A DNA stretch of 64,000 nt from Tubulanus polymorphus (Eukaryota; Animalia; Nemertea), in contig NC_134026.1 in NCBI RefSeq assembly GCF_964204645.1, forward strand, positions 18,014,150-18,078,149. Reading direction: 5' to 3'. A program made the translations under genes and the position numbers. Numbering within the stretch: position 1 is the stretch's first letter; the number at the start of each line of letters is the position of its first letter. The notes beneath the pieces were generated by a model. It had not been told where the DNA came from, did not search any database, and saw only the letters and a list, made by a program, of their open reading frames with translations. Shown in pieces: positions 25,572-64,000 of this stretch.

Positions 25572-26387
25572 ACTTACTTCCACGGAAGTGTCAAATTATT
25601 CTCACTAAATTGATATTTTTAAGATGTTTCTGTGGTGGGTGGACAAGGTCGAAAAACATAGTTTTTATAAAAACATGGTGAGGAAACTATTTGTACCCAG
25701 AAAATTTCCCTATCACAGGAGCAATGCACACCTGTCTAAATTCCCCAATGATAAATACATCAATATGGAGCCTAGTGAATCATGTGTGTTTCAAGAACGC
25801 GGGTGCACAGTTTCAATTTTCCGCTGTTTTTCCAGTCAAATCTAAAGTGATTTCATTCAAGGCTAAAAATATTGTCAGATTCTGATGCAACGATGCTCAT
25901 AGCCTCCAAAACATATTTGTGTCGGTCTTCAACTTTTTTGGTATGTGGATCGATGTGAAAAAAGTACGTTGATTGGCGCGATACCAGGGGCTCCATATAT
26001 CTTTCCAGGGTAGGCTTTTTTGGCTTGTCTACACATATTGGTGATTCAGTATGGGTAATTTGTCGTTAGCTTCAGATTCCATCTTTTGTGGTCATAAATC
26101 CGACTTGATATAATTTATCTTTGTCCCAGTCTAAACCAAAAATTCTCACCAAAACACACAAACAACTTTAACCACCTACCCTGCCTAATACACATTTATG
26201 CGACACCTATAAAATTTTCAAGACGTTTTTCAGTTTTATACAATTTTTATTGAAAAAGCAACCAACACCGGGATACATATTTTTACAATCATTTTTAACT
26301 CATTCAATTATTTTACATATGTACTTCTGCTCATTCGGTTATTGGAGGCGGTCCATTATATGTGGAATTCACAACACATATAATCTT

Positions 26388-29300
26388 CTAGAATAAGTCA
26401 TCTTCGCAGACCATGTCCTCCTCTGCCTCACTACCTGCCCGGTCCGCGGAGTCGTTTTCGTATTCGTCTGTGTCCACGTCCATATCCTTGTGGGTACTGG
26501 CTGTGTTGGACGCACTGCCAATTTCTCTTTTCAGCTGCATGAGTACTTGAGCTCTAAACAGTTCCTTGTCTATATTGTCGTCTCCGACCAGGTTTGGATA
26601 GTGCGCTTGCATGATGAATTCCATTTCATCCATGTTGTCCGTATCGGTGAATGTTAGAATGTTTTCGGTCAAGTACTTGGCAAGCTTAGCCCAGCTTACG
26701 TCTCCATCCTCAATAGTATTGAGTAATTGGTCGATATCGATACGTTTTAGGGTAGCCTCTATCCTCTCGTCCCATCCCCAGTCGCTGGCGCCTTTTCCTG
26801 CGTTGAAATCTTTTCGTTTGTATGCCGGGCACATCGGTCTTACAACCAACACGTTAACATCGCTCTTGGTCATCATGGCCGCGTTTGTGTCGACTGTGTT
26901 GTCTTTGAACCGTTTTAGACTTGGGTTTTGTAACAAGTTGTTGAGTACATAACCCTGGTGGTTATTTGGACAACTCCCGCTTTTGACAGAGATGTAGTAG
27001 TTTTTGCCGTCTTTGGAATCGTACGAAGAAAATTGATGGGTACCGTACACGATGGCAACTCCCGAGATATTGTTGAAGCACGCAGTGTCGGTGATAGCGG
27101 GTTGTATATTACATTCAGCCATGTAGGCCGTTTTCAGCTGCTTCATGGTGTTACCGATTCCCTCAACTTTGTTGGGTAGAACGAGTTGTGTCAGGCATAA
27201 ATCGGTAAGAGCGGCTTTCCTTTCGCAATCTCTTGAACCCACCATATTGACAGCTCTATGGCTTCCTTCGTCAAGGGTAATCTGACGGAATTTCTTTGTT
27301 GGTGTTTTGGCTCCATAGACCACACTGGCTGACAACAGGGCGTGTAGTTGTCCCACGAACGTATATCTAATCTGTTTACCTTCTTCCATCAGAGTTTGTT
27401 TGAGAAAGTCGTAGGTAAGGTCGGATATTCTCAGCGATTTCTTATCGAAAATGTCAGCCAAGTGTTGAGATACAAAACGCACTAAACTACCGTGTTTGCC
27501 GACACACTTTCTTGTACCATCTTCTAGTTTAGTTACGTTGCAAGATCTCATTTCAGTGTTCAAATCGTCAAATCTTCTGGCTAGGCCGCGCAGCAATCCT
27601 TTGAGATCGCGATCAACGTGCATGGCCAAGTCAGGTCCGTTGGTTTTTGTTTCTCAGAGAAATTCTACGATATGACCAATGCCCTTTGTTATTGTGTCTT
27701 CTCGGGTGAATCCATCGCCGGCGAAAAACTTTGTCAACATACCGGGCTGAGTTATTATGTTGCCGATGGTTTTTATGTCCGCTTTCAGAATTGGGTAGTT
27801 TGCATTGTATAACTCGTTCAGGTCGCCAGCTTCACCTTGGATATTGTAAGTTGACGAAGTTAGCGTATCTGCAGACGAGTGGCCGCCGACCAAAAGCATA
27901 GCTTCATCCTCTTGATTCTCCTTTCTCTCCTTTTCACGTTTGAGTGCCAGTTGAACGCTGGTCGCATCAGCAGTTGCGTTGTCTTGATGGGTATTGTTAG
28001 AACTGCCGTCAGTTGATGGTTTTGGGGAACAGTTGGTGGTATTTGTTAGATGAGGTTTCTTGGCATCCTCAAAATGGAACAAATCACCCTTGTACACGTA
28101 CTGGGTCGGGTAGGTCAAATTGTCTACCATGATGGTTTTGTTTTTCCTACGTTCTCCATCATCTTTGATGGCCTCTTTCGAGAAAAACAGATGAGGTAAA
28201 TTGACACTCTGCATCTTGTTTTTGGATGAAGCTACGGCTTTCATACGTGTCGCAATCCAAATTGATTGATTGGCTGGGTACTCTTCATCGTCGTCTTTTT
28301 CCGAGTCTTCGGATTCACTGGCACTACCGGATTCGTTGTCGACTCTTTCTTTTTTGATCGATTTCTTCTTCCCCTCTTCATCTTCGCCAATGTCCATGTT
28401 GTCTTCGTTTGCTTTGAAGAAATCGTTGATAAAATGGGTACGCATATCCACACTGGTCGAGTTAACTATTCCAGTGCAAGGTCCGCCTTTATTTTCTCGT
28501 TTCAACAGATCGGCACACGATACATGGTTTACAATGCCGACTTCACCTTTGTGAACTGCCTCGGTAACAACCATGTGTTTGCACAGACAAAACGCTTGTG
28601 TAAGTGCCATCGCTTTCATATGAGGACTAGAGACCAAGTCTGTTGGTGCGTAGCCGGTCATTTTTCTGTTGAGCTCCTTTTCGTTTGATTCTGTATGAAT
28701 TTTCACAAGTCCGCTTCCGACATCTCGTTGTAATTCGTCTATACCCATACCTAGAACTTCTGCTGTTCTGTGAAATACTTTGCTGGCGTATGAGACTACA
28801 TTTTGCACGTAAATCCTAAAGAGGACTGTTGCGGTTTTAGTTTTGAATTCTTCATCTTGTTGCATTACGATGCGTTTCATTGTCTCCTTACAACGAATCA
28901 CGATTTGATCGTCTGTAGTTGGGTAAAGTTCTTTATCCGTTTCCATGTACGTCTGACGCCACTTGGCCATCATCGCAATCAATTCGTCCATGAATCCGTC
29001 TTGTTGAATGGTAGTCAGAACGGTCTTTTGTAGAGATGGTTCAGCTGTAGCGGCATCAGTGCTATCGTCATTTTCCTTGGGTAATTGACTTAGGATAAAA
29101 GACAGTCTGGCCACTAACAACGAGTTTGCGATATGACGTTCCAGGGTAGCATATTGGTCTTCCTTGTTAACTACTTCTGAATCAACCGCTTCCTCTGTTG
29201 TCTGTGGTGAATTGGGTAATTCAGCATTTTTTGATTTCTTGCTGACCTTCTTGGATTTTTTCAAGGACTTGTGTTTTTTCCCATCTTTCCTCTTACGCTT

Positions 29301-32300
29301 TCTGCTGCTACTGGTCTCGTCGTCATCGTCCGATGAGGATGAAGCGTCGTCACTGCTGCTATCTGAACTCTCATTTGCCGCAGTAGTTTCCTCGTCTGTC
29401 TTTTTGTCGGAATTTTCCAACAAACTTTTGTAAACGTTCATTGTCATCGACTTGGACTTGACACAATCGACCAATATCTTCAACTCTGCTGCATTGGCGC
29501 CAACGACCTCGTAAATTGCATTACGAAGGGCGCTGTCTACAAGCATATCCTCGTGTAACATGTCTTCGGTGACAATCGTGTCTTTAGATTTGTTGTTGCC
29601 CTGGGTAGTCTGCTGCTTGCGTTTTTCAGTCTTGGCCCACTCTACTGCATTTTTGTTATCGAAAAACATTTCTATCCAGTCTGTTGGCTTTACTTTGACG
29701 TCGATCAGTTTCGATTGGTTGTTTTCACTTTGAATCTGATCAATCTTTTCGGAGACAGAGGCATCATCGTCTGTTTTTTTCAGACTTGTTATGTCCATGG
29801 CTTTTTGGAAAGATGGCATGAAGCGAACATTGTTGTTCACGACGTTGCTCAAAATTACCAAGGGTATGGCCTTTGAGAAGGTAGACACAGTTTTGTTGTA
29901 CTTTTTGTCTTTTTTCTTTTCCAAATCGGCACTCTTTTCTACGACTCCTGGGACAGCTGCTGACGTGGTCGCGGTATCAGCCGTATTAGATCCGGACGAA
30001 TCCGTGCCTTCTTTCTGGGTAGTGGCTGTTGGGTCTGTTGTTGTACCAGGGACACTGGTCTCTGCCGCCTTTGCGTCACTCTCTTCTTTGAATTTGTTCC
30101 TTTTCAAGTTCCTTGGTTGATACTTAAACTTGTCCTCCGTATGAACGATCGCCAGCCCACCGAATTTGTTTGCGTTTTCGATTCCAGACTTTTTGCACAC
30201 CAACATACCGTGAATATTTGCACTCCTATTAGAAGCCGCATTGGTGTCCAGGACGTTCTGGTTGTTTGAGTCGTTGGTAAGGAGATTATAAAAGTTTTTC
30301 CCATTGTCCATTACCAACATGGGCTTGAGTTCACCACCCACAATGAGTGTTATGATACAGTGGGTCAGATAACAGAAACAAAATTGTTTCTTTGTAGAGT
30401 CGTAGTAGGGTAATCCGCTGTAACAGTCGGGACACTCTTCGTTGGGCTTAATTTTTCCACCGCGTCGCGTAGATCTCACCGCCTTGTTTTCAAACACACT
30501 AATTTGATGCTTACCACTGGAGCCCTCTGGGAACAGAACATTTTCCAATTGGGTAATATCTCCTTTGCACACAATCAACAACCATTTGGTTATCATGTTG
30601 GTCAATCGCGCACACGAGTATTTGGCCAATTTGGCAAATAGGATGTCGAATATTGTACTCATTCGGTCGATGTGTGATCCAGAGCGACAGATTGTTCTAT
30701 AGAAACCGTGTCGTTTATCTTTTTTATCGTTGTGGAACATTTTATAGATGAGTTCGGGGCTAAGTTCTCCAAATTCGTCAAGACCCGTTTCGGTACAATA
30801 CATCTCGCTGCCTTTTGACTTGATGGCTTTTATTTTGTTTATACGAGCATTGTCTGTCTTGTACTTGTTTCCCCAACTGTCCTTGATGTGTACATCGGTG
30901 ACCACTCGGTCGGTAAAGGCACCACCGCTAATATCGAACATCATGCTTACTTCAAAACCGTATCCACTCGACACTATACCGTTGGCGTACATGTGTGTTA
31001 ATTTGAGCTTTTCTTCCTCTGTGAGTTCTGATACCTTTTTCGGTAGCTTTACCTTATTGCCAGTGGGTAACTTGGTCTCTGGATCTATTTCGTCCACTTC
31101 AAGCACAACGATGAGGTTTTCTTGTTTTGCCAAATCAGCAACCTTGTTGTCTTGGGGAGTCTTTTCGTTGTTGTACGATTCTACAAATTTATCCAACTTG
31201 TTCTTCAATTGTAGACGCATGTACTCTTGGTCGTTGGCTGGGTAATTCGCTCTCAGGTTGTCACCTATTATTCGTTCTCTGGTGTCGCTGCGTTCCAACT
31301 CTTTACGTTTTTCTTCCGTGAGATTTGCGCGTTCTTTGTTTTTGTCCGATTTCATCTTAGTCAACATTTCTTCCGTGTAGCGGACCTTGCCGTTATGGGT
31401 AACATATGTTTCTTCGCCATACATGTTTACATTTCCGCGACCGTTTCGCATTCGACTTAGAGGAATCGCATCGCTGATAATGTTGGCGAGCATGCTGGTC
31501 TTCTGATCGACCGTTGAGACGCGCTGTTGGCTATCTTTAGAGATGGTACCGTGTACCAAATCCAAATGGAACATGTAATTTACCATGGCCATTTTTTGTG
31601 AATATACTTGGTCTCTGAACACTTTGTTGTTCTTAAATTTCTTCAACTCTTCAATGGTGGGCTTCATTTGAATCGTGTTGGGTGTATTGGACCTGACAAC
31701 AACGTCTACCAGAGAGTAAAGTTTATCACAGATGCCTTTATGAAGTGGGTGAGTATCTTCTACGTAGTGCAAGTGACAGTCGAGTATAGTGTCGGCTAGA
31801 GTCGATCCAAGTTTAGCCCTGGCCTCTGGACCATCGATGTAGGCAGCCAAATCACGACGTCTTAGATTGAATTCATTTGGGCCGTACACAGGCACCATGA
31901 AACAATAATTGTCTAACAGGTCATCTCGAGCTTGGTTTTTCTCACTTACAGGTGATTCTTCGCCGCCGTCGGTTGTGGTTGTGGTGGTGGTGGTGGTGGA
32001 GTCAGGACCTTGGATTACCGGTTTAATGAACCGATGTCTGACCTGACCATTCAAGTAACCATTGTTGATATGCATTTTGAATGTGACAGGACTGACTCGG
32101 AGACACGAATCAGATTGTCGTTTTGACGAGGACGCGGTGGTGGACTTGCCGTTGTCTTTTTTAGACTTTGATTTTTTCTTTTTGGTCGTGGACGATGCAT
32201 TGTCGTCTCTCATAGCCTTGTTGTATTTTTTGTCGGCTATATCGCGACAGTACGTCAATGCAGTGGTCTTGTCTAAAAACAGCGCCAACACAAAATCGCA

Positions 32301-33005
32301 TCGTTGCTCTTCGGGTATATTGGGAAAGTGTCTTGTCCAAATTCCTTCTAGCAATTCTTGATCCATCTCGGTAAAGCCCGTGTAAATGGTATCCGAGTTG
32401 TATCCCTCGGATGATGCCAAAAACGCGGCGCTGTTATCGGTGTCGGTGGTTATCAATTCCTTCATTCCTTTAGCCATTTTGTTAACCGTTTCGGTTTCGA
32501 TTAGGGGTATTTTTCCAGGTTCACCCTTGTGGAACTTTTCGTACTCAGGTGAAACGATGTGCTGACCACCGCTAAGAATTATGGCAGTTGTACATGCCGG
32601 AGCGCCATTGTTTTTAAAACTAATAGTCAACTTGTCACCGCTGCCGTCATAGGTTACACTTCGCGATACTTGAATAGTGGTCGGCATAGAAGGAAAACCC
32701 GGATTCGGCAGCTTGCTATCAACTGTTCCCGTTTGACCGTAAATTTCAACTCCTACCATGTCTATAGGGTCTATACCGGCGAACTTGCTTTTATGTATGG
32801 CCACAATGCTGTTTATAACAGCTGTAACCGACGATTCGCCTGCGTAAATATCGTTCATATCTTGTTTATTTTGGGCAATTGCTTCTTCGTATCTGTTTAC
32901 GAATACTTTCTCTCCGGCATCATCACCACTATTATCAGAACCACCTGTCTTGGTCGCGCTGCTGCCAGTGGTGTTGGGTTTTTGTTGAGAAAAGTATTGA
33001 TCCAT
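26388..33005 (-). CDS. ~2200-codon viral ORF interrupted by one in-frame TGA (1783 aa + 8 codons + 413 aa); candidate ICP8-like ssDNA-binding protein
   Basis: TTT CTC TGA GAA ACA AAA ACC AAC GGA CCT GAC TTG GCC ATG: both track ORFs share one frame. CPDC...CFCYLTHC Zn-like cluster and acidic tail ending EDDLF. The function is weak inference; the coding status is strong. Confidence 0.6.
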
Positions 33006-34066: not shown

Positions 34067-34136
34067 GCCTAAAAAATATCTAAAAACTATTTTTATTTTC
34101 TGTCTGTAAACAAATTTCACAATAACACCATGTGTG

Positions 34137-36185
34137 CTAATAATTTACAACAAATGTTGTTTGTGCTTTGTTGGTAGATCTATCATAGGTGTAGCACCCG
34201 TCTAAGTTGAGATCGGCAGATCTGTCCTTGAGTTTGTATTTTTCAATCATAGCTCTGGTAGGCTTCATGGGTATGGTGGGAGGACCGTCGCCAGTACTGC
34301 ATTTATAAGCCAAGTACCAACTCATGCAAACGCACACGCTAATATCGTCCAACTTGCCAGATCCTTTACCGGTCACTTTGTTATTTTCGTATCTCACATT
34401 ACCCAACTGTTGGCTAATTTCAAAGGGTACGCTACAATTTGGTCCCGTGTACATGCTGACCGTGATCACAGGACTTGCACACTTTATTTGACCCACGTTC
34501 AGATAATCATGGAAGAACGACATGTACACGTTCACCTTTTCACCTTGCAACAAATAACCAACGTTGTACGTTCTCCTTGCAAAATCTTCGTTTTCAGCTG
34601 TTTTAGCCGTAACCGAATAACAGTCTGCTTCTAACATTGAAGACAAGTCCCGGTTGATGGCTGTATTCGTGGCATTATCCAAGTGAGTGCCTAATTTCGT
34701 CTTGTATTTACCGGCAATGTTTTTCAGCCTAGACTTCCACCGGGTGTTCAACTGACGCTGAGCTGAGAGTCGTGCACTTCTCATCGACTGTCTGATGGCC
34801 ACTTCATTGTCATCGGACGAATACTCATCTTCGCTGCTACTGCTGCATTCTGAATTGCCCGGAGACCACTCGTCCGTACTATCATCAACTGCCAAAGAAA
34901 ACTTGGCTCGTTTCGTTAATTTGCGCGAGTATTTATCCGAATTGATGTTGGATCGTTTCGTCCTGTTCTGACGCTGCAATCGTTCGTATGCCTTATTGGC
35001 CGAGGTGAGTTCTCGTTTCATCTGCTGCAAAGAAACGTCTTTAAAGTTGCCACCCTCATCTCCGTGATACTTGGCGTATTGGGCTGCCGACAACGAGTGG
35101 ACCACATAATCCACCGATACATGTTGAAGCAGATAACTATTTTGGTAAAAGTTATTGTCAAATTCAGTTTTGAAATGATTCAACTGAAAGCTGTTGGCTT
35201 CAACTGCAAGTACATATTTGTCAAAATAGTTGTAGTATCGGGTAATCATAACGAACAGGGTAATCAATCGTTTGGCAATGGCTATGGACGGAGAGGCACT
35301 ATGAGTATCTACTTCTGAAGCATCGAACGTATCTGCTGCCACTACGACGTAGTATTCTGGTTGCGATTTTACTTTGCTCATAATACATACGGCATTTTTA
35401 CTGATATCTTTGGGTGCCGTGTCGGTATACACGTAAAGTCGTTTATCGATAACCATCGGATTTTCAACCACACCGTCTATGTGCTGTTTGAGTAAAAACG
35501 GATCTCCGGCCAAAATGCTAAGTCCCCGATCGTTGGCCATTTTACCGAATCTCATCGCCTGTTCCACTAACGCATTGACACTTTGACCTTTTTGCATGTC
35601 TGGTGGCAGTAGACCCATTTCGGCCAAGGGTACACATTTATTTTTCGTGGCCATGACTTCGGTGAGATTTCTATGTCCCAAGCTCAGAGACAAATGGTAA
35701 GGTTGGCCCATGTTGCAGAGACACCGTGTAACCAGCACTCCTTTTTGTAGAACTGCGGGTAAGTGAGCTTTACAGACGAATACCACACTGAGAAATCTGA
35801 TCTGCGGATGTCGTTTTGATTCCAAGTCCATCCATTCTGCACCAGCATTTTTCCCATTATTGAGTTTTATACCCAACTTGGCGGCTACCACAGCAGCTTG
35901 GTTTTTCTTCTGCTGTTTAGTAATCAACTGACGCTCCTCCATGGTGAGTTTCGACAGCGCCTTTTGAATCGTACGTTCGTTCATGTCTGCAAAGTCACCA
36001 CCACTGCTACTGCTCAGAGATTCATTTTCAAGCTGTTCGTTGGTAAGTCGATGTGAACAGAAAATCTCCAGCCGACTGTCTTTGATTTGTATAAATCCAA
36101 GTATGACGGCAGTGTGTTCGTCAGTGTTTGATATGAAGGCTGCTTCGTCCCACATAAACTTCGTTGCCGAGTCTCCGCGACCAGC
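34137..36185 (-). CDS. TRM3: DNA packaging terminase ATPase/nuclease subunit, exon 2
   Basis: Acceptor tttttttcttgtctactttcag, then AGRGDSATKFMWDEAAFI (Walker B; cf. GIRGQDFNLLFVDEANFI). Also VVFVCKAH..RCLC and RNase H-like LYVYTD, LAVEANS, GKGSGKLDDISVCVCM. Confidence 0.93.
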   Translation of the reverse strand, partial: AGRGDSATKFMWDEAAFISNTDEHTAVILGFIQIKDSRLEIFCSHRLTNEQLENESLSSSSGGDFADMNERTIQKALSKLTMEERQLITKQQKKNQAAVVAAKLGIKLNNGKNAGAEWMDLESKRHPQIRFLSVVFVCKAHLPAVLQKGVLVTRCLCNMGQPYHLSLSLGHRNLTEVMATKNKCVPLAEMGLLPPDMQKGQSVNALVEQAMRFGKMANDRGLSILAGDPFLLKQHIDGVVENPMVIDKRLYVYTDTAPKDISKNAVCIMSKVKSQPEYYVVVAADTFDASEVDTHSASPSIAIAKRLITLFVMITRYYNYFDKYVLAVEANSFQLNHFKTEFDNNFYQNSYLLQHVSVDYVVHSLSAAQYAKYHGDEGGNFKDVSLQQMKRELTSANKAYERLQRQNRTKRSNINSDKYSRKLTKRAKFSLAVDDSTDEWSPGNSECSSSSEDEYSSDDNEVAIRQSMRSARLSAQRQLNTRWKSRLKNIAGKYKTKLGTHLDNATNTAINRDLSSMLEADCYSVTAKTAENEDFARRTYNVGYLLQGEKVNVYMSFFHDYLNVGQIKCASPVITVSMYTGPNCSVPFEISQQLGNVRYENNKVTGKGSGKLDDISVCVCMSWYLAYKCSTGDGPPTIPMKPTRAMIEKYKLKDRSADLNLDGCYTYDRSTNKAQTTFVVNY

Positions 36186-36221
36186 CTGAAAGTAGACAAG
36201 AAAAAAACACCATTATAACAT

Positions 36222-36810
36222 TTAGGGAAGCGGAGGAAATGCGACACGGCGGTATTGTGTCCTGCGGCTGTCGGACAAGAACCGAGACGAGATACACGAT
36301 AGCAGCTGCAAGCCGTGTCAGGATGATGGTGAAATGTGTTGGAGAATCGGTGAAGTGTTGGACAATGTGAAAAATTGTGAAAGTTGGAAATTTCAAAAAA
36401 GTCCCCCAGAAAATCAAAAACAGTGACACTATACTATAGCTGGGGTACCGGGGTTCTGGGGTATTTGGGGTACTTGGGGTACCAAAAAAATAGTACTAAT
36501 TCAAGTTCCAAAAATTCTGTTAAAATGGAACAGTCACCTGTTTTTTTTCTGGTACCCCAAGTACCCCAAATACCCCGGAACCCCGGTACCCCAGCTATAG
36601 TATAGTGTCACTATTTTCGATTTTCTGGGGGACTGACTTTGGTTCACATCCATCACAAACTTTTTTTAATTTTTCCAATTTTTGTAAGTTCTTCATTTTG
36701 TCGACTTGGTCGTTTTTGGTTAACAGACTTGAAACGGCTACAGCATGCTTCGTCTCGGTTCTTGTCCGACAGCCGCGAGACACATTACCGCCGTGTCGCA
36801 TTTCCGCTTC
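36222..36810. repeat. Nested palindromic element, copy 1 (candidate origin or recombination site)
   Basis: Inner ~85-bp inverted arms (AGTCCCCCAGAAAATC...GGGGTACC) around a ~60-bp loop. Outer inverted ~55-bp motif GCGACACGGCGGTA.TGTGTC..GCGGCTGTCGGACAAGAACCGAGACG. Confidence 0.9.
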
Positions 36811-36971
36811 TCTAATCAAGTATGGGTGGACTGAATGGAGGGTTTGATAAAATATTATTGAGCAAGGTAGCATGTTTGATATACACTCACAATTGGTCAC
36901 AGAGTTACGTATGAGAATAAAAACATATAAGGACTACCCTACTACCCATAATTTGTTATCAATACGCTAAG

Positions 36972-37904
36972 TTGCTTCTCGCAAACGCTTATCGGTTTAA
37001 TATGACCATGTCTAAGTTAACAACACGATCGTCAAAATGCAACAAGTTGTCGTTCGTGGTGGCGACAATGTTTGTCTTTATTGCGATCTCTATAGCCAGT
37101 GCAGACTCTCTTGTCGCCGATGGATACAATGCCAGAATTGACAAGCATGGATACAAATTGGTCGACATGACATACAAACAGACTAGTCAAAATAAAGAAA
37201 CATCGCTGATTGCCTCAGACAAGCATACCAGCAGAGAAGATATGCCTTCCGAATTCTTGGTGAAAATCGAAATACCCAAATTACAAACTCAGAACGCCGG
37301 CAATCAAGCTACCGAGACAAAGTTTTTCATGTACTTTATGCGAAACAGTCACGACATTTTCACCCGCTATCAATTCCTTCATGTTATTGGAGCTAGTGCC
37401 ACCGACATTGCGACGAAAAAATGGGGAAGCGTTTCCGCCAACAAACTTTTGTCTGCCGAGAAGACATACTTGAACAAGAACGACCAACAAGAATTTACCA
37501 AGTTATATGGCGAGGTTGCTAAGATTAACTGGGGACACATTGCCGGTGTGTCGAAAATACAAGAAGGATCAGATGACCATTCCATGTTATTGGGAACCGA
37601 CGCGACTGCTAGTCAAACCAATGTGGCAATCGATTTGTACAAAGAACACGGCACCAACAAGATTTTTTCAATTAATTTCCATATGTTCAATACGCTTGAA
37701 ATGAGTACCCGAGCAAAAGAACTCGTCGAGCTTCAACGACTGGAAATGAGAGGTCGTGAAGAAATTGACAGAGATACCACCCACAGGGGTCAGATTGTAA
37801 AGGGTCAACTTGGTTTTGGCGCAATTATTGGAATTGTGTTGGCAGCGGTAACTGTTTTGATTTTGTTAATTTGCCTGATCACTTGGTGTGTGAAACGTCG
37901 TTAA
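36972..37904 (+). CDS. Type I membrane protein in the terminase intron
   Basis: N-terminal hydrophobic signal (FVVATMFVFIAISIASA), C-terminal TM and KRR tail. The true start is probably a downstream ATG (~37002-37008). Confidence 0.8.
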   Translation: MLLANAYRFNMTMSKLTTRSSKCNKLSFVVATMFVFIAISIASADSLVADGYNARIDKHGYKLVDMTYKQTSQNKETSLIASDKHTSREDMPSEFLVKIEIPKLQTQNAGNQATETKFFMYFMRNSHDIFTRYQFLHVIGASATDIATKKWGSVSANKLLSAEKTYLNKNDQQEFTKLYGEVAKINWGHIAGVSKIQEGSDDHSMLLGTDATASQTNVAIDLYKEHGTNKIFSINFHMFNTLEMSTRAKELVELQRLEMRGREEIDRDTTHRGQIVKGQLGFGAIIGIVLAAVTVLILLICLITWCVKRR

Positions 37905-38028
37905 GGACAAAGAGGACTGGTGAGAAAAAAATGTATCTACGATTTTTGTAACCCACAATGTTCATATTTTATATTTCTAAATAATTGTACATTTTGCCAT
38001 TTATATCCTACCCACTACAAAGAACAAC

Positions 38029-41920: not shown

Positions 41921-42019
41921 ATGTAAATATGCTGCTTTAGAATTTGATTTGTGGATCTATGGTAATGGTATCAATAAATAAAAATAAAGTGACTTTTAGT
42001 AAAAAAATATTGCACTTAC

Positions 42020-43432: not shown

Positions 43433-43533
43433 GGTGACTCTGTGGAAAATCTACCGAAGCTAAAGTAAAAAGTCAAGACATAATATATATTTTTCAAAAG
43501 CTTACATTTTTATTTTAGATCAAATTATTCTAG

Positions 43534-44382: not shown

Positions 44383-44472
44383 TGTACCCTTACAACATGT
44401 CCGATTTTATTTTTTTCGTAACTTTATACATTTCCTATCTTGTTCCATTTTGGCTCATTTTTCTCACCTTCT

Positions 44473-54570: not shown

Positions 54571-55987
54571 TGGGGACGATACAAGTCCCGTTGTATAACA
54601 AAATTATATCTAGAGCTACCAACAACCACATTACAAAACAGACTATACTAAATACGATAAATAGTCTCATGAAATATTCACAAAATAGTGAACAACAACC
54701 ACCTCGCTTTTGGGTACAAAACGTGAAAATTGTTTCTTTTTGTGAGTTCTTCGTTCCCTCCATTATGTCCATTGTTTCCAGTAGGCGAACAGTGTTTTCC
54801 TGATCCAAGTAGCCACGTACCTTTTTCAAAACCTTTTCCCTGCGTTTTGTGTACTTGAGATAATTAAAATTGAATGCTTTTATAATTTCTACACAAAACA
54901 CAAAAGATGTGCACAGTGTCATCAACATGGCAGTAAAAATTATTCGGCATTCTCTTAAAGGGGTAAGGGTATTAGCTGCTATTTTATCCGCTGCAGTATT
55001 GTCACCAGAAGGGTTTGATATAAATCGTACCAACTGTAATGTTCCGTCTAGTCCAACATTATCTACATGTTCGACGCCTGTTATCATGGACAAGAGAAAC
55101 GAAAATGTTACCATAATGTGTGTTAAACTCCCTAACATCAACACAAACATACATGGGTACAGCATTAACAGGACCAAACGCTGTTTTCTTTTATAAATGT
55201 TGCCACTGGTTTCTGTATTCATTTGATTTTGTCTAATTGATGTATTGTACATTTCCATGTTGTTAGTTCTACTGCCACCACTTCGTTTTCTTAGTGTATT
55301 TTGTTGTGGGTACCCGTCATCTCCTTCTTCCATTGTCGATAACAAACCAGTATCCTCGTTATATTCACCCTCCCATCCAGTTATGTTATTTTTATACCTT
55401 TTTCTAGAAGCATAATAGCTCTTCAGTCGGTAGACCCGTTCTCGAACAGCTATTACACATGTAACAGCGTATAGAACAATCAAGGCTATAAAAGTTGTGG
55501 AAATCCACACAAGTGGAGAGTGATGTACATCTTCCAACTTGTAGGGTAATGCTTTTCTCTCGTGTAGTTTTATTTTAGCGTTAATACTGTCGCCGTCGCT
55601 TGGATTCATCACTTTTTCCCATTGTGATGCAAGTGCAAGCATTTTGCAATCTCTACAACAACGGACAGAGCCACTGCATACCGTGTAAAATTCCTTTGTA
55701 CAAATTTTAAAGAGGGTAACGTTAGAATCCGGAGTGTGGGGTATAAATTTGCATCCCGATAAAGGTGTGCAGAGTCTTCCTCTGCGCTTCATCAGTCCAT
55801 GTTGTCTAAATTGTTCTCTCGAGGCTACATTGGCGTCCAAGTCGGAATAGAATACAGTGTCCCAAAAGAAGAACACAAATCCAAAAAATGTAACAAACGC
55901 CAATATGTTCAATAAGAGTAACAATTTATCCAAAACGATGTTAGATGTTGCCATATTGGAAATAGTGAAATATTCTAACTCTAACAA
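54557..55987 (-). CDS. Multi-pass membrane protein (about 5 TM) with Cys-rich first loop
   Basis: Hydrophobic segments plus LCTPLSGC...CSGSVRCCRDC loop. Confidence 0.75.
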   Translation of the reverse strand: MLELEYFTISNMATSNIVLDKLLLLLNILAFVTFFGFVFFFWDTVFYSDLDANVASREQFRQHGLMKRRGRLCTPLSGCKFIPHTPDSNVTLFKICTKEFYTVCSGSVRCCRDCKMLALASQWEKVMNPSDGDSINAKIKLHERKALPYKLEDVHHSPLVWISTTFIALIVLYAVTCVIAVRERVYRLKSYYASRKRYKNNITGWEGEYNEDTGLLSTMEEGDDGYPQQNTLRKRSGGSRTNNMEMYNTSIRQNQMNTETSGNIYKRKQRLVLLMLYPCMFVLMLGSLTHIMVTFSFLLSMITGVEHVDNVGLDGTLQLVRFISNPSGDNTAADKIAANTLTPLRECRIIFTAMLMTLCTSFVFCVEIIKAFNFNYLKYTKRREKVLKKVRGYLDQENTVRLLETMDIMEGTKNSQKETIFTFCTQKRGGCCSLFCEYFMRLFIVFSIVCFVMWLLVALDIILLYNGTCIVPSECK

Positions 55988-56241: not shown

Positions 56242-56331
56242 GCCAGGATGGCCGAGCGGTTAAGGCGTTGGAATTAAGATCCAATGGACAACACGATTAT
56301 ATCCGCGTTGGTTCGATCCCCACTCCTGGTA
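56242..56331 (+). tRNA. trnL-TAA: tRNA-Leu(TAA)-like gene, non-canonical
   Basis: GCCAGGATGGCCGAGCGGTTAAGGCG TTGGA ATTAAGA TCCAA...GGTTCGATCCCCACTCCTGGTA. A and B boxes intact, T-run downstream. A at position 32, enlarged variable arm, one T-stem mismatch. Confidence 0.85.
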
Positions 56332-57224: not shown

Positions 57225-60197
57225 GTGAAAATTGTATTTAGTACAACAGCACCTATTCCCGATGTTACACACCCTCTGCATGGTCTCATGATGAAAATTT
57301 TTGATTCGAAAAACGAGTCTTGTAAACTCAATGAAGCTGTTGAAAAAAACATTCAAAAAATCATTGCTATTGATGTTACATATTCCAATGGCAATGGAAA
57401 AAAGTCTACCAGTAAAAGATTTAGTTCTTCCATATTCGAAAGGCCTGAATCCAATTCACAAATGAGAGACAAAATACTGGTACAAGCTCTCATGAGTTCA
57501 GATGAACACGTTTATGAAGTAATAGATGACACGAAGCCAAAGCGTCTTTATTTAGACATCGAGTGGACAACAGATCGAAGCGTCAATGACGACTCGCGCT
57601 CACGAGAACAAAATGCTCGAGATTTACTATCAAACATGGTGAATGAATTTGAAAAGTACTTAATCAAATTCAAAACCGACGACACCATGTCCGCAGCAGA
57701 ATTTACCCAGCGTCTCGTACTAACCAGTAGTCGTGTGAGGAAAACGAAATACAAGCATTCGTTTCATGTTATATACCCAAATATTATATTTAACGAAATA
57801 ACCGATATGAAACGATGTGTTCTAGAATTCAAAAATTCTAACACAAAATATGGTTTTATGATAGACAAGGACGTCTACAACAAAAACCAACAATTCCGTG
57901 CTGTTAACCAAAGTAAAATCTGCAGCTCTACAGTTCTATCCATTTTGCCCGAGTTATCTAGTCCTGAAGCACAACCTAGTCGGTCATTAATCCAACCATA
58001 CTCCGAATTGAAGTCAACGACAAACAGCATGACTTTACCAAAACATTCTACTACAAAGAGAAAAAGAAAATCTTCGTCAGCATCATTAGCAGCAAATGAA
58101 CCAAGCACGACTTGTATCAAACGCTCCAAAAAATGCCAACACTCAGCGGACGAAAATCAACACCCAAAAGACGCAGTTCCCGACAGGCCTTTAAAACTAC
58201 CCAATTCATCTGTCGTTGTCCGTACAGACAAAGATGTCATTGATTTGATTGATGGAAAAGATTTACGAGCAAGTGATTTCACCAAACACTATTTACCCAT
58301 CCTTACATCAATTGTCTGTAGGAATCTTACAGGTAACACCAACATTACACCAAACGACATCATGACATGGTGTAACTACACAGACGACAATCTATCAAAA
58401 GCCCAAAAAGACATAGATTATGTCACCAAAAACGCCGAGAAACAACTGGATGATGATTTCAAGTATCTAATACAACACATCAAAGACCTAAAAGACATCA
58501 CTGTATACGATTTGAGAACAAAACATATCCAGCCTAAGATAAAACATGTGAAATTTGAAGAAGTGAATTTATCGAAACGCATCCACACCAAAACACTGTG
58601 TCTACAAGTGACCACCGATGATGGAACCGAGGCCCAAAAACAATGCGTTGATAATATTGTCAAGTTCGTTCACGACTACAAAATAGAAAACACTTGTTTG
58701 TTAAACAACAATGTTTTACTATTATCAAACGAAAAGAAAAAGATGGATTTTAAAAACTTAGCGAAAACACTCACCAAGTACAACATATCGGTGTCAGGTC
58801 GAAATTTCGATACCCCCTTTCCAAAAAGTATACTCGAACAAAGTATCGACCTAAGCGCTAACATTGACAGTCAACTACTGTTAAATGTAGGCGAAATGTA
58901 CGAGATTGACCAAATAAAGTCGATTATAGAGTATACCGCGAAATGTGACAAACAAAAGCACAAAAACAAAGAATTGCTAACAAAAAGCATACATCAATTG
59001 GTCAACGAGGGCACAATCAAACTTACCGAAATATCCTATGTTCAAAGTGCCAGATCTCAATACAACAAACTAGTTTCTGAATCCGAGCAAAAACCTGATC
59101 TATAGGAAACTTACGTCATGAAATTCCGACGAGGTAAACAAGACGAAGACGGTATATACACACCCCTAGAACCATGGAAAGAATCAATAGAAATACCCAT
59201 AATACCATACCGAATTGGTGTAAAACGACGCAGCTTGTACATTTGGTCGTATGGGCCCAATTGGGGAAAAACCTTTAATGCCGATACATTTTGTAAACTA
59301 TACAACGCGCAGTGCGTCAACGATACCAATAATTGGACCAATATTCGCCGTAACGTTCAATTCCTGTTCTTTGACGAGTTTAGTGAAAAGCGAAAATTGG
59401 AGTTCAGCAGTCTCGCTGCTCTAGCTGGTGGAAACCCCGAACACTTTTCTGGAAATTGTAAAAGTTATGGCGACTCGTTTCAAACAAACAATGAAAAACT
59501 CCAAGTAATAATTTTCTCAAACGTTTCGCCGTTTAAGCTGTACGGTGATTGGGACAAGAAACTTCAGAAGCGATTGATTAGTACCGACAACGCCAACATC
59601 CTGAAAGAAAGATTTGCCATGTACTGTTTGGACGGCGATGTTTGGCTAGATGAAATTCAAAATACTAAACGAGACAAACTTACTCTTTCACAGTTGTATT
59701 TCTGTACAATTACAGACTTACGAGGAATGTTACTAAAACTACTACCAGGTGTGGTTTGTAATACTCTTAGAGACAAATTATTTATGATGACACAATATCT
59801 TGTAAACGTATTAAGTTGTTGGGATTTTTCATACGCCTGTGCAGATCAAATACAGTCTGTGATCAAACGTTTTACAAAGTATCTCTTGCATCCTGAAATC
59901 GCAAGAGTAATGTCAGCAATTATCGATTCCGATTATTTCAACTCCGCACGACGCAGCATCAAAGTTCCTGGCAAAGATGTTTCTTCAACTTTTATACCTC
60001 TTGTTGAAGTTTCCGAAGTGTTGGAATATGCAAGGTGTAGGATTGAAATATGTAATGAAATATTACAAGAAGGATACGATCCTCTTATGGACACCGACAA
60101 TAATTCAGACATTGAAAGCGACGTTGAGTGTGAGGACGATTTGTTCCCAAGTTGTTACCAAAGTTGCAAATGTAGCCTTATTAACGTTCAAATGTAA
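57225..60197 (+). CDS. AEP (PrimPol-like) primase fused to SF3 helicase, interrupted by one in-frame TAG
   Basis: AEP motifs YEVI..RLYLDIE, SFHVI, IDKDVYNKNQQFR. SF3 motifs GPNWGKT (A), LFFDEF (B), VIIFSN (C). CTA TAG GAA ACT TAC GTC ATG links the two track ORFs in frame. Confidence 0.85.
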
Positions 60198-60329: not shown

Positions 60330-60739
60330 ATGAAAATCAACATAGTGTTATTTGGTTGTTTTTTATTGTCCAATATTGCTAATGCTGAGTTCAATTATGA
60401 TTCGAATGACGATGATGCCGTTGGTGATTACATCTGCTCACTTGATGATGAAGTCTATATAAATGGAAAATGTTACGATAAAACTACAGTCTATGTTGGT
60501 GGTTTTTTGGTCTCTTAGCTGTATTAGCAGTAATTAGTGATTGTTTTTGTGGATTTTGTTGCTGTTGCTGTGCGCCATGTAAGAATAATAGAAATCTAGG
60601 AATTATCCATACTCCTACAACTGTTATAACCATGCCAAACACAGTGCCTGGTGGTTCTGTAGCTCCTCCACCCTATCCTGCGAATGGTGGTGGATTTGAA
60701 AACATGATGTTTGGGGTGAAGCAACCTTCTGATGTGTGA
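60330..60739 (+). CDS. Shisa/WBP1-like small membrane protein with PPxY motif, 1-nt frameshift in a T run
   Basis: Signal peptide and short Cys ectodomain. After a shift at GGTTTTTTGG (60501-60510) it reads GLLAVLAVISDCFCGFCCCCCAPC...VAPPPYP...DV-stop. Confidence 0.7.
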
Positions 60740-61261
60740 AATGTAAAGAAGCACAACCCTACTCAGACCATACTCCATTCGTCAATACAACTCCGCCACA
60801 ACAAAACAACTTTACCCATGTGTACATCATCATCCGCCGTTTACCCAGACTCAATCGTCTTATTGCAGGAGGTGCCAGAAGGAAGTATAAAACATTCCAA
60901 GTCATTTGGTGCTTCAAGAATTTGCGTGTATGTTTCCATCGACGCCGCTACCAGACTCTATAAGTAATACGATGACGGGCACATGCGTGTGAGCGATTGT
61001 ATGTGGGATCTTGCGAGCTAAAGCGCTGTTGTGAAACGCTAGTGTACCGGCCTTGTATAAAGAACAATAAAAACACATGTCCCCGATGCTCTACGAAAGT
61101 AGATGAGATAAAGTTACAAGAGGAGAAATAAGGTTACGAATGGAGAAATAGCGGGTTACGAGAGGAGAAATAAGCCAAGTTCGAACTTTTTCCAAGAGGT
61201 TAGAGAACACATACTTATCTCACTCAATCACTCAGTCCAAAAAGAGTTCGTTCCGTAATCG

Positions 61262-62230
61262 AACAACCAACCAACCAACCACTCTACCCTGTATAGGGGA
61301 AGCGGATGATGGGCGACACGGCGGTATTGTGTCCCGCGGTTGTCGGACAAGAACCGAGACTCGACATACGATGCAGCTGCAAGCACACGCAGGCACATCT
61401 CTGAGCTGAACACAAGTCGAGTGTGTGTATCGATCGTAAGCCACCAATTTATAATTAATGTCTAAAATGCACAAGTCCAACCAACCAACCAACCAACCAA
61501 CCAACCAACCAACCAACCAACCAACCAACCCCAAACCCTGTATAGGGAAGCGGGCGATGGGCGACACGGCGGTAATGTGTCCCGCGGCTGTCGAACAAGA
61601 ACCGAGACGAAGCATGCTGTGGCCGCTGCAAGCACATGCAGTAGCAAGAGATTTGTGCCAAGACATGGAGCTAAGGCAATGATGCAGCAGCAGCACAGTG
61701 AGCCGTATGAGTCTGACATGGCATAAAGTCAAGAATAAACATCATATATTATGGTGAATGGAAAATGAAAAATTTTCGAACTTGGCCAAATTTTCAAAAT
61801 TTTCAACATTTTCCAAAAAGTCCCCCAGAAAATCAAAAACAGTGACACTATACTATAGCTGGGGTACCGGGGTTCTGGGGTATCTGGGGTACTTGGGGTA
61901 CCAGAAATTAGTACTAATTTAAGTTCCAAAAATTCTGTTAAAATGGAACAGTCACCTGTTTTTTCTGGTACCCCAAGTACCCCAGATACCCCAGAACCCC
62001 GGTACCCCAGCTATAGTATAGTGTCACTGTTTTTGATTTTCTGGGGGACTTTTTTGAAATTTCCAACTTCACAATTTTTCACTTTGTCCAACACTTCACC
62101 GATTCTCCGACACATTTCACCATCATCCTGACACGGCTTGCAGCTGCTATCGTGTATCTCGTCTCGGTTCTTGTCCGACAGCCGCAGGACACAATACCGC
62201 CGTGTCGCTATCTCCGCGCTTCCCTATAAC
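61262..62230. repeat. Nested palindromic element, copy 2, with an extra motif copy and (AACC)n
   Basis: Same inner palindrome at ~61815-62055. The 55-bp motif occurs at ~61312, ~61561 and inverted at ~62160-62208. (AACC)n at 61479-61530. Confidence 0.9.
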
Positions 62231-62379
62231 ATGGTTAAGGGTGGTCTAGATACACAGGCACACGCAGTGGTTCTCTATGTTCGGCGGAATGACTTGGCTT
62301 ATTTCTCCTCTCGTAATACAGTGGAAATTCAATCGGATATATAACTGCTACTACATGTTATGAACGCTTATAAATATAA

Positions 62380-63116
62380 TACTGTTTCGTTCACTCGCAC
62401 CTTACGTATGCGACCCTAATTTGGGGAAATGGATCCAATGTTTATATTGACCCTCTATTTCGTTTACAAAAGAAAGCCATTCGTATTATAACCCATTCTC
62501 ATTGGTTAGCTCATACATCCCCTATTTTTAGAAAACTAGAAATCCTAAAATTACGTGACATTTATAAATCTCAATTAAGTACTTTTGTATTCTCACAGAT
62601 CAATAACAATCTACCTTCTATCTTTGATAATTTTTATAACCTTAGAAACTTCAAACGACCGTCTCGGCACCTTTTAAGTCTAACCGTTGATTTCGCTCGA
62701 ACAAATTTCAGAATTAAATCTCCAAAAATCCAGGGTGCTAGAATTTGGAATAGCTTATCCAATAAACAAAAATCTTCAAAATCATCTGTTCACTTCAAAA
62801 GCTCTCTAGTTAAAAATTTGATTTCGACCTATTAAATTCTTTATTTCGTGGACGCCATTATTGTACATATATTATATCTTTTTTTTCCATCAATTTTGTG
62901 TGTGTCTTGTAACGAATGTAAGTGAGGGTGAATGGCGTGTGCATGCGAGTGTGTTTGTTACTGAGGGGTAAGGACTCGCATAAGTCTACTTTGACTTTTC
63001 CTTACTCCTCGCATAATATATTGTTACTTTTAATAACTTACTATTATGTATATATATATTTCTTGTTACAATTTATTTGCAAAATAAATCTAATCTAATC
63101 TAATCTAATCTAATCT
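62380..63116 (+). mobile_element. 5'-truncated CR1/L2-group (Crack/Daphne-like) LINE inside the viral block
   Basis: HLTYATLIWG..LFRLQKKAIRIITHSHWLAHTSPIFRKLEILKL...GARIWNSL..FKSSL, then 3' UTR, AATAAA and (TCTAA)n tail. Confidence 0.85.
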
Positions 63117-63267
63117 TATTGTGAACAATCAAAAACTAAAAATGAACTCGGTATAAGGTACTATATATATGATTGTGTGTTTATTAGAATGAATAAAAAT
63201 TGATTTACAATTAATTATACAAAATTTACAAGTTTCTTTCATTTTCATTTGGGTATGTGTGTTGTTC

Positions 63268-64000
63268 TTAGAGTAGTTCATCGTCTTCGTCGTAAAAATC
63301 ACTATCCTCGTCTTCGCTGTCACTATAACTGTTGTGGTCTTTTTTGCGGCGTTTTTGGAGTTTTGTTTTTTCATCAGCATTGTCAGCGTCGTCTTCATTG
63401 CTTTCGGATGAGCTTTTGTCGGCGTCTTCAGAATTTGATGATTTATTCTTACGACTATGCCGTTTTTTCAAAGATTTAAATATCAACGTATTTAAACCAC
63501 AAAACTGATAAACGGCTAAAAACATCAAACTCTGAATACAAAATGCAATAAGCGACAAAAACCCGCCGCTAGTAAGACAAGTGATCACCTCCCCTATACC
63601 GCCTGGCAGTGCGTTTAAAATGTCGTGGAAACCTTTCAGTGGCCCTTTGTTAGCGAATGATTTGTCTAAATCCCTAAAGTCCAGAGATCTATTGAGTCCC
63701 TTTTCCATTTCCTTGGCAAACACTTTTACCCTTGCATTGGTTAAGGCGGCTGCCTTTTTCATGTCTATTCCATATTTCTTGATACTGGCTACCACATCTT
63801 GCAACGGCATTGACCATTTGAGTTTGTGAATTTGAATAGGGGTAAGATCGTCGTGAAAAGACGGCCATAGAGCGTTGTTTCCTTGAAGAGTGTTGCCTCC
63901 GATTTCGCTTGGAAGATATTCATAGTCTTTGTTGTCCAAAAAGTTCTGAATTAAAAACGAGTTGATGGGTAAACGAAACGTTATTTCCTTTAACGTATCT
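63268..64000 (-). CDS. C-terminus of a membrane glycoprotein, 5' end outside the window
   Basis: Frame is open to the window edge. Gly-rich amphipathic segment, TM, then basic and acidic tail. Confidence 0.7.
   Translation of the reverse strand, partial: DTLKEITFRLPINSFLIQNFLDNKDYEYLPSEIGGNTLQGNNALWPSFHDDLTPIQIHKLKWSMPLQDVVASIKKYGIDMKKAAALTNARVKVFAKEMEKGLNRSLDFRDLDKSFANKGPLKGFHDILNALPGGIGEVITCLTSGGFLSLIAFCIQSLMFLAVYQFCGLNTLIFKSLKKRHSRKNKSSNSEDADKSSSESNEDDADNADEKTKLQKRRKKDHNSYSDSEDEDSDFYDEDDELL

Follow-up and report, generated by a model that had tools for sequence, protein, structure and literature searches.

A divergent invertebrate-type herpesvirus segment with a predicted split terminase, likely fixed in an animal chromosome

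The window analysed here is a stretch of 64,000 nucleotides from Tubulanus polymorphus (contig NC_134026.1). A preliminary description had placed a herpesvirus-like genome at 26,240 to 64,000. We found that viral open reading frames (ORFs) do continue up to the right edge of the window, where the element remains open, and that they start at 26,388 rather than at 26,240, covering about 38 kb; the coding share is 88.5% across 26,388-60,197. The features of the locus are the following.

22975..26160, minus strand: left flank, decayed KDZ/Zisupton transposase gene (PF18758, 2.5e-11)
26388..27623, minus strand: 411-aa viral ORF without family match, final gene before the left flank
27654..33005, minus strand: 1,783-aa viral ORF, directly downstream of terminase exon 2
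34137..36185, minus strand: terminase exon 2 (Walker B, C-motif, nuclease), acceptor before 36,185
36186..42019, minus strand: predicted GT-AG intron of 5,834 nt, splicing inferred from sequence
36222..36815, no strand: TA-flanked, MITE-like foldback element (z -28), 37 nt from the terminase acceptor
37002..37904, plus strand: intron-nested 300-aa type I membrane protein with N- and C-terminal hydrophobic segments
38029..39291, plus strand: intron-nested 420-aa protein, likely a zinc-binding late-transcription factor of the UL92/ORF31 family
39246..40076, plus strand: intron-nested 276-aa ORF without assigned family
40067..41920, plus strand: intron-nested 617-aa ORF without assigned family
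42020..43432, minus strand: terminase exon 1 (Q motif, Walker A), GT donor after 42,020
43534..44382, minus strand: 282-aa HMG-box protein (PF00505, 1.1e-8)
44473..48150, minus strand: 1,225-aa type I membrane glycoprotein
48285..49901, minus strand: 538-aa multi-pass membrane protein, 7 segments
49921..54549, minus strand: 1,542-aa viral ORF without assigned family
54557..55954, minus strand: 465-aa multi-pass membrane protein, 5 segments
56242..56331, plus strand: tRNA-Leu(TAA) gene
57288..59105, plus strand: AEP/PrimPol-like ORF
59118..60197, plus strand: P-loop (SF3-type) helicase ORF
60330..60739, plus strand: gene for a small Cys-rich membrane protein with a PPxY motif (six-frame view)
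61156..62316, no strand: second, longer foldback copy, 89% identical over 421 nt, with a (CCAA)n tract
62380..63116, plus strand: 3' fragment of a retrotransposon, presumably LINE-type, with an (AATCT)6 tail
63268..63999, minus strand: viral-type ORF with one hydrophobic segment, truncated by the window edge

As had been proposed, the viral genes are largely intact; two breaks are visible, and two or three inserts are of transposon type. The primase ORF terminates at a single stop, in frame with the helicase ORF, and the Cys-rich PPxY gene lies in two reading frames with a break near 60,500; neither this gene nor the LINE-type fragment gave a match in Pfam. A perfect 250-nt duplication (at 56,358 and 56,836) follows the tRNA gene. 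Of seven components named in the preliminary description, six were recovered, namely the terminase, a UL92-like factor, membrane proteins (four ORFs with 2, 2, 7 and 5 hydrophobic segments), a primase-helicase, the HMG box and the tRNA; the seventh, a gB-like fusogen, was not. The helicase resembles an abalone herpesvirus ORF (32% over 141 aa, E 5e-16), and the match of the primase ORF to AEP_C962R (E 0.0014) falls short of the cut-off.

The two halves of the terminase were compared with a profile of 12 full-length herpes terminases. The exon-1 ORF (41,996-43,432) matched with an E-value of 4.5e-24 and the exon-2 ORF (34,137-36,155) with 4.9e-40; exon 2 also matched PF02499 (2.9e-8). Walker A, Walker B and the three acidic motifs of the nuclease align with the profile and, through it, with HSV-1 pUL15, so that the attribution of all ATPase and nuclease motifs to a herpes-type terminase is confirmed. 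The acceptor is a polypyrimidine-CAG site in phase 0, placed 6 nt before the Walker-B arginine. All orthoherpes-type loci of two sets (50/50 and 31/31, one record being common to both) had the same acceptor, as did all three alloherpes-type loci (taken to be alloherpesviral from a motif and their tree position). For this reason, the split terminase does not qualify as the orthoherpesvirus-like trait that it had been held to be. Both closest terminase homologs start at the same point, and 44 of the 58 relatives found start at or after Walker B. Since many unnamed relatives thus appear to carry the same intron, it is likely ancestral, with a loss in the classic malacoherpesviruses; the terminase of OsHV-1 is indeed unspliced (PMC2994540), as the preliminary description had said.

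The predicted intron encloses the first foldback element and four genes on the opposite strand. The 420-aa ORF among them scored 11.8 bits against a UL92/ORF31 profile confirmed to be PF03048 (E 1.3e-4 among 17 window ORFs) and stays under Pfam's own threshold for this family; the score was reached by 0 of 3000 shuffles and by 0 of 1,621 unrelated viral ORFs, and the match is therefore weak but specific. In the UL92/ORF31 family an invariant Cys/His cluster is followed by Thr-Gly; in the nested ORF, five of the six cluster residues are identical, one Cys is replaced by His, and Thr-Gly by Ser-Lys. Its distance from the acceptor is 1,250 nt once the foldback insert is discounted, and in beta- and gammaherpesviruses UL92/ORF31 lies on the opposite strand of the intron, 154-1,381 nt from the acceptor, in 47/47 cases. 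We consider that this ORF likely encodes a UL92/ORF31-type protein, in the same place and orientation as in the orthoherpesvirus intron. No homologs of it were found among 1,847 candidates. The profiles of orthoherpesvirus intron genes did not match the 617-aa ORF or the other two nested genes.

The 1,225-aa protein has a type I membrane topology and, by eye, three colinear gB-like motifs. Profiles of 20 beta/gamma gB proteins gave about 0 bits with this protein and hhalign a probability of 2%; its gB block-chain score was below the shuffle mean, with 291 of 400 shuffles as high. A recognisable gB, as had been claimed, is plausible but finds no statistical support in these three comparisons, and the protein would probably be a class III fusogen. 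Single-sequence AlphaFold models, this glycoprotein being among the proteins folded, were unusable (pLDDT 30.5 and 37.4), and a search of the Atlas gave no usable match for it or for the UL92-like ORF. A gamma membrane-protein profile matched the ORF at 48,285-49,901 (E 9e-5) with 11.9 bits and 0/2000 shuffles, a score no lower than that of the UL92 match; we discount it as a probable transmembrane artefact.

In the window, beyond whose right edge the element continues, we identified no gene for a polymerase, capsid protein or portal; a family B DNA polymerase may lie further to the right. By size and position only, the 1,783-aa ORF is a capsid-protein candidate; orthoherpes-type MCP/capsid and triplex profiles matched no ORF of the window, this one included. 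Profiles for the ssDNA-binding protein, terminase subunit and polymerase (clusters named by size and position) had no match in the window. Sequence searches of the PDB with the window proteins returned nothing significant, the phage search no match, and PHROGs and NCBIfam one chance-level match each. A TATT-type late-promoter motif precedes 1 of 14 ORFs, about the chance level.

Two sequencing runs bear on the status of the element: X1, which may be the window's own source and hence is not independent, and X2, from another study and under another organism label. The X2 copy differs from the window at 38 of 7,925 nt and at 43 of about 8,280 nt (about 0.3-0.5%), and shares its left flank; one X2 contig begins in the flank at 25,676 and reaches 27,945, within the 1,783-aa ORF. 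In both runs, contigs start at 25,676 by a multicopy node and continue into the viral ORFs. The host nature of 25,676-26,160 was assigned by eye. Changes in two ORFs, among 40 of 116 rows listed, comprised 4 synonymous and 14 non-synonymous ones, one of which falls in a stop codon. Under neutrality, 24.6% would be synonymous, as compared to 4/18 among these listed changes; an omega of 0.2 would yield this proportion with a P of 0.0007, and an omega of 0.5 is compatible with it (P 0.10). On these 18 listed changes, the ORFs of the two copies differ neutrally, which corresponds to a loss of purifying selection. The depth of the viral core is flat (15.5-16.2 in X1, 36-49 in X2), and the flank has a depth of 11.7 vs. 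15.5 for the core in X1 and 64.8 vs. 36-49 in X2. A foldback element and the LINE-type fragment lie inside the viral block; the first foldback element is high-copy in X1 (depth 186-664 vs. 15.5 for the viral core) and only about 2-3 times the viral depth in X2.

Taken together, the common left flank, the neutral changes, the flat depth and the transposon-type inserts make germline integration, as first proposed, likely. We read the locus as a genome segment of a divergent herpesvirus of invertebrate type, as yet unnamed, likely fixed recently in an animal chromosome and likely inherited passively, and give this reading a probability of about 0.78.

That it is instead a free or episomal herpesvirus of the sequenced animal, co-assembled onto host DNA through a repeat, is unlikely. 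Nearly all its ORFs are intact, and such co-assembly is documented for mollusc genomes (PMC11092209). Among the contigs listed, none bridges the viral ORFs to the certain KDZ exon, and they break at repeats near 25,520-25,680, just left of the viral part. Non-coding stretches also diverge faster than ORFs. A free virus does not fit with a neutral ratio of changes between copies, with two studies having the same left flank, nor with the flat depth and the inserts inside the block. In the flank at 25,676-26,387, X2 and the window differ at 11 of 712 nt, about five times the ORF rate (18/6,618, among rows listed), a faster divergence that simple neutrality does not explain.

The KDZ gene, on the same strand and directly downstream of the last viral ORF, raises the further alternative of a virus fused to this KDZ/Zisupton transposon and mobile as a composite, for which Teratorn is a precedent (PMC5601938), and mobility genes are reported to be enriched in embedded deep-branching Herpesvirales (bioRxiv 2025.04.19.649669). 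We regard it as very unlikely. Only the last KDZ exon is certain; the presumed upstream pieces (24,083-24,612 and 25,650-26,160, assigned by eye, with no relevant match in Pfam) carry stops and frame breaks, whereas the viral ORFs are intact. Along the viral part the depth is even, and loose ends indicate repeats in the flank and in the foldback element alone. A terminal inverted repeat was not seen, the right end of the element lying beyond the window; within the window, we found no intact linked transposase, terminal repeats or many copies.

Phylogenetic analysis of the terminase, which had been proposed as a check, placed the window element on the invertebrate side, in an unnamed five-member clade (support 100/100) that is sister to the Malaco herpesvirus 4 ORF71 cluster (98/95 and 98/94 under two models). 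The intronless terminases of OsHV-1, abalone and amphioxus viruses form a separate clade (97/99), with the element outside, and the orthoherpesvirus branch stands apart (100/100). A clade with OsHV-1 and the abalone virus was rejected (p-AU 0.0007), and one with the orthoherpesviruses weakly so (p-AU 0.039). Identity is 26% to Malaco herpesvirus 4 (351 trimmed columns), 22% to Malacoherpesviridae proper with the amphioxus-associated herpesvirus, and 20% to orthoherpesviruses. The catalytic motifs of the ATPase and nuclease and the nesting among herpesvirus sequences place the element in the Herpesvirales, within a wider invertebrate radiation of this tree. It lies outside Malacoherpesviridae proper, having a terminase that is predicted to be split and no clade with OsHV-1 and the abalone virus, and outside Alloherpesviridae, in the absence of a terminase in more than two pieces and of a grouping with fish and frog viruses. 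The terminase assigns the element to a herpesvirus lineage of invertebrate type, unnamed and deeply divergent; by descent it is not orthoherpes-like.

The tree includes no mirusvirus or phage rows, and most neighbours are unnamed. Mirusvirus terminases are often split near Walker B, and some of their split sites coincide with alloherpesvirus ones (PMC12768974). That the element is an endogenous mirusvirus, or some other duplodnavirus outside the herpesviruses whose terminase is split, is nonetheless highly improbable, since the nearest named protein, with strong support, is ORF71 of Malaco herpesvirus 4, the helicase has a homolog in abalone herpesvirus, four membrane proteins suit an enveloped virus, and the host flank is animal-type. 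The two-exon terminase with opposite-strand nested genes, a UL92-like one included, might suggest an invertebrate sister of Orthoherpesviridae, but this is scarcely credible given the p-AU value, the branch apart, the lower identity, the much wider distribution of the intron, and the failure to find monophyly or detectable core genes.

The preliminary description had spoken of an undescribed Herpesvirales group. The lineage is unnamed, but embedded deep-branching invertebrate herpesviruses have already been reported (bioRxiv 10.1101/2025.04.19.649669), and the group may thus not be wholly undescribed. Locus searches for relatives in IMG/VR and JGI metagenomes gave nothing, and in the literature searched, subscription papers and preprint supplements aside, we met no account of a spliced terminase around a UL92-like gene in an invertebrate herpesvirus.

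We propose that, like other Herpesvirales, the virus would have replicated in the nucleus, supplying the primase and helicase itself. The host spliceosome would join the two terminase exons over the 5.8-kb intron, giving the ATPase-nuclease packaging motor; the likely UL92/ORF31-type zinc protein within this intron would serve late transcription, and the large type I glycoprotein would probably drive entry. Since the viral part of the window shows no integrase, capture was most likely accidental, through host break repair in a germ-line nucleus, beside or inside the decayed KDZ transposon. HHV-6 and Marek's disease virus integrate through telomeric repeats, and a degenerate TTAGGG-like array does lie among the KDZ gene pieces at 24,713-25,053 (13 hexamers in 360 nt vs. 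9 in the remaining plus strand, G-rich strand toward the virus), but this route is hardly believable here, since no two perfect repeats are in tandem, some 1.3 kb separates the array from the first viral ORF, and similar degenerate repeats occur in the KDZ intron (23,660-24,080).

The three herpesvirus families have little in common beyond the terminase, and for this reason the ancestral gene set and gene order are not yet settled. The same split base as in human and frog-type herpesviruses and the likely same enclosed late-transcription gene would mean that this layout predates the split between vertebrate and invertebrate herpesviruses. At somewhat less than even odds, the element keeps an ancestral packaging cassette of the Herpesvirales, a terminase intron with a nested UL92/ORF31 gene; the beta/gamma pre-initiation system would then predate that split, and within a large unnamed radiation with the intron, one that enters invertebrate germ lines and, if so, merits family rank, the classic malacoherpesviruses would be a derived twig that lacks it. 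A near-intact segment from a deep invertebrate lineage, which retains the intron at the identical position and likely one of the nested genes, is a rare order-wide synteny link. With it one can test whether the late-transcription complex of beta- and gammaherpesviruses is an ancestral feature, and whether the classic malacoherpesviruses are defined by loss of the intron. Likely a recent copy in the germ line, present in data of at least three studies, it provides host-anchored evidence, unlike metagenomic contigs, and a natural example of a herpesvirus that would have become endogenous with no integrase in sight.

Among known systems, Alloherpesviridae have the same acceptor position as the window; in the two complete loci the alloherpes-type exon stops after about 200 codons, whereas exon 2 of the window spans the nuclease. 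Teratorn is an intact germ-line herpesvirus; in the window there is no intact fused transposase, and multicopy spread was not seen. Beta- and gammaherpesviruses (UL89/UL92, ORF29/ORF31) share with the window the two-exon terminase with the same acceptor and phase, and UL92/ORF31 on the opposite strand of the intron has a likely counterpart in it. Their terminase branches separately, none of the remaining three genes nested here matches the profiles of their intron genes, and their gB, capsid, ssDNA-binding and polymerase profiles have no match in the window.

OsHV-1, abalone herpesvirus and the amphioxus-associated herpesvirus, the last described as probably integrated (PMC2994540), are on the same side of the terminase tree as the window, and the abalone virus has the same P-loop helicase family. 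In contrast with the window, Malacoherpesviridae proper and the amphioxus virus have an intronless terminase, and up to 10 kb on each side of these three terminases no further ORF is common with the window. Malaco herpesvirus 4 (ORF71, DBA11685), a contig-level virus of Rosani et al. 2023 as cited in PMC11092209, is closer in the tree; its ORF71 also starts at Walker B and is therefore probably split at the same place. Its terminase is only 26% identical, and PMC11092209 does not report integration for it in the part that concerns us. Finally, the embedded deep-branching Herpesvirales of bioRxiv 10.1101/2025.04.19.649669 are defined by their polymerase, and we found no analysis of introns or nested genes in the text of the preprint; like the element, they are embedded in invertebrate hosts and fall between Ortho- and Malacoherpesviridae (unrooted), and the window could be among the regions described there.

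From 26,388 on, the window was packed with long ORFs (coding share of 88.5% up to 60,197), with a strong AT skew and a final ORF truncated at the window edge, and this element is a real, likely endogenous herpesvirus segment. A profile of 12 full-length terminases, which recovers HSV-1 pUL15 at 5.6e-41, matched two of its ORFs, and the Walker A, Walker B and nuclease acidic motifs of the herpes-type terminase in the preliminary description were found there.

34,137-36,155: terminase ORF, Walker B and nuclease acidic motifs (E 4.9e-40)
41,996-43,432: terminase ORF, Q motif and Walker A (E 4.5e-24)
GT donor after 42,020, polypyrimidine-CAG acceptor before 36,185: predicted terminase intron, 5,834 nt, phase 0
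36,222-36,815: foldback copy in the intron
61,156-62,316: second foldback copy, near 61-63 kb

Judging from the sequence, the terminase would be spliced across this intron. In 50 of 50 and 31 of 31 orthoherpes-type loci (one record being common to both sets) and in 3 of 3 alloherpes-type loci, all picked by a Walker-B pattern outside which the acceptor lies, an AG precedes the conserved arginine codon by exactly 6 nt; the offset in the window is the same 6 nt. The available text of a review, PMC13595911, gives an orthoherpes terminase intron of about 3.5 kb and multiple exons for allo- and mirusvirus terminases. The terminases of OsHV-1, abalone and amphioxus viruses are described as intronless in the accessible part of PMC2994540, which bears out the unspliced OsHV-1 terminase mentioned in the preliminary description. 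Straight after the terminase stop, a 420-nt stretch with 40-nt inverted ends (33,644-34,062), where indels of sequencing run X2 are concentrated, is possibly another small insert.

The profile search for terminase relatives gave 58 representatives, the named ones being Malaco herpesvirus 4 ORF71, abalone herpesvirus and amphioxus proteins. A canonical Walker A was present in 12, one more was full length and one was unaligned. The remaining 44 of the 58 start at or after Walker B, 12 of them with the Gln-x-x-Arg-Gly expected from the acceptor, and contig truncation could be behind some of these starts. The two nearest proteins (47% and 45% identity) are unnamed and both begin at the same acceptor. 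Dozens of other unnamed herpes-type terminase fragments (P0006-P0055), some on contigs of 165-208 kb, apparently do so too, and may represent a large undescribed radiation or partly mirusviruses.

The phylogeny proposed in the preliminary description was carried out on exon 2 (364 columns; 81, 53 and 41 rows), with the OsHV-1 terminase added from a separate search; the smaller trees omit close or short rows, and the 41-row tree also the alloherpes rows. In these unrooted trees, built on one gene only and without mirusviruses, the window and four unnamed proteins formed a clade (100/100), sister to the Malaco herpesvirus 4 cluster (98/95; 98/94 with a mixture model). The element belongs to an unnamed invertebrate herpesvirus clade. 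Grouping the window with OsHV-1 and the abalone virus was firmly rejected (p-AU 0.0007), and grouping it with orthoherpesviruses weakly so (p-AU 0.039). Trimmed identity to the window was 58-40% within its own clade, 26% for Malaco herpesvirus 4, 22% for OsHV-1 and 20% for orthoherpesviruses. The intronless terminases grouped among themselves (97/99; 94/97), and a further full-length sequence fell outside this group; the simplest reading would be that the intron is ancestral and was lost in classic malacoherpesviruses. The terminase P0056, full length and sister to an exon-2-type sequence, is placed outside the intronless clade and possibly reflects a second intron loss.

The intron contains four opposite-strand ORFs. 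Nineteen profiles were made from ORFs lying upstream of the acceptor in orthoherpesviruses, and that of the UL92 cluster alone gave a match with E <0.01, to the ORF at 38,029-39,291. A profile of 47 beta- and gammaherpesvirus sequences (two members checked, both PF03048) scored 11.8 bits on this ORF, a value equalled by none of 3,000 shuffles and by no ORF among 1,621 unrelated viral ones, the best of which scored 6.8. Counting against the match, a probable false profile match elsewhere in the window scored as high. Of the six Cys/His in the cluster, five are identical and the sixth, a Cys, is replaced by His; the Thr-Gly pair is also changed. In the reference set, each of the 47 genes is on the opposite strand at 154-1,381 nt from the acceptor; the distance in the window is 1,844 nt, or 1,250 nt once the foldback insert is removed. 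The homolog search found no homolog of this ORF to deepen the profile. On this evidence, it probably belongs to the UL92/ORF31 family, which the available text of PMC12197705 presents as one of six beta/gamma late-transcription factors and a predicted zinc binder.

The TA-flanked foldback element was inside the intron in both X1, the run that is possibly the source of the window, and X2. Its depth was 12-43x viral in X1 and only about 2-3x in X2, and it was high-copy only in X1 and a third run, X3. The element may have multiplied recently in one host lineage, or else have been carried by the virus. The tail beside the second copy is presumably LINE-type.

As for the other viral genes, one encodes a 1,225-aa protein in which a signal peptide, a C-terminal anchor and three gB-like motifs in the correct order appear; gB homology was not significant in any test run, and the "recognisable" fusogen of the preliminary description was not confirmed. 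Near its terminase, the abalone virus has a homolog of the helicase ORF, which argues that this ORF is viral. A 742-aa abalone herpesvirus ORF (L106:16,190-18,415), which Pfam did not match, has a P-loop helicase domain homologous to that of the window. One in-frame stop (59,103-59,105) separates the primase-like and helicase ORFs. The HMG box and the tRNA were confirmed, and the searches run gave no identification for the 1,542-aa and 1,783-aa ORFs. The interval separating the tRNA from the primase-like ORF (56,358-57,085) contains a perfect 250-nt duplication with a 51-nt palindrome in each copy, a candidate replication origin.

The left 25 kb is animal-type, repeat-rich DNA in which a tyrosine recombinase, a DDE transposase and its Myb/SANT partner, a DUF3987 exon and a KDZ transposase were recognised as fragments. 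The recombinase fragments and the Myb/SANT-DDE pair (4,400-6,800 and 11,470-13,470) are, we assume, from a retroelement and Harbinger-like, respectively. A spliced DUF3987 gene (+) converges with a spliced KDZ gene (-) at 18,400-26,160, possibly as one large transposon whose introns carry degenerate telomere-like repeats; in the TTAGGG-like array of this flank no perfect repeat is directly followed by another, and a minisatellite within the transposon is the better reading. Tandem arrays with internal palindromes occur at 14,808-15,746 (203 nt, 4.7 copies) and 17,968-18,256 (146 nt).

Parts of 25,100-35,000 were found in six runs from four studies, and four runs were compared over 25,100-45,000. 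X1 matched the window exactly at a flat depth of 15.5-16.2; X2, of a different study and label, differed by about 0.3-0.5% at a depth of 36-49. In both, a contig beginning at 25,676, adjoining a multicopy node, extends into viral ORFs. Visual inspection suggests that the decayed KDZ gene goes on through 25,650-26,160, so the host-virus junction would fall at 26,160-26,390; this piece had no confirmation from Pfam, and, as a point against integration, no contig in the runs compared joined the virus to the securely identified KDZ exon. The 18 X2 changes in the two left ORFs (4 synonymous, 14 not) fit the neutral expectation; an omega of 0.2 was excluded (P 0.0007) and one of 0.5 was not (P 0.10). 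Two further results speak against integration: divergence in the flank is five times that in the ORFs, and high copy number of the foldback element is confined to X1 and X3. At an assumed 2e-9 to 1e-8 per site per year, a divergence of 0.27% would place the split of the copies roughly 0.1-0.7 million years ago. In a further run, X5, two joints over 34,467-43,858 each skip about 5.5 kb, as expected of a mate-pair library, and were not read as deletions.

Among invertebrates, amphioxus is known to carry integrated herpesviruses (PMC2994540, in the text available), and Teratorn is described in the accessible part of PMC5601938 as an alloherpesvirus fused to a transposon. The window may be one of the embedded invertebrate herpesviruses already reported (bioRxiv 2025.04.19.649669); the literature search found no account of a terminase intron with a nested gene in an invertebrate herpesvirus. 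With respect to Orthoherpesviridae, the "orthoherpesvirus-like architecture" of the preliminary description holds for the terminase layout, which works alike, but not for membership, the element lying outside that family.
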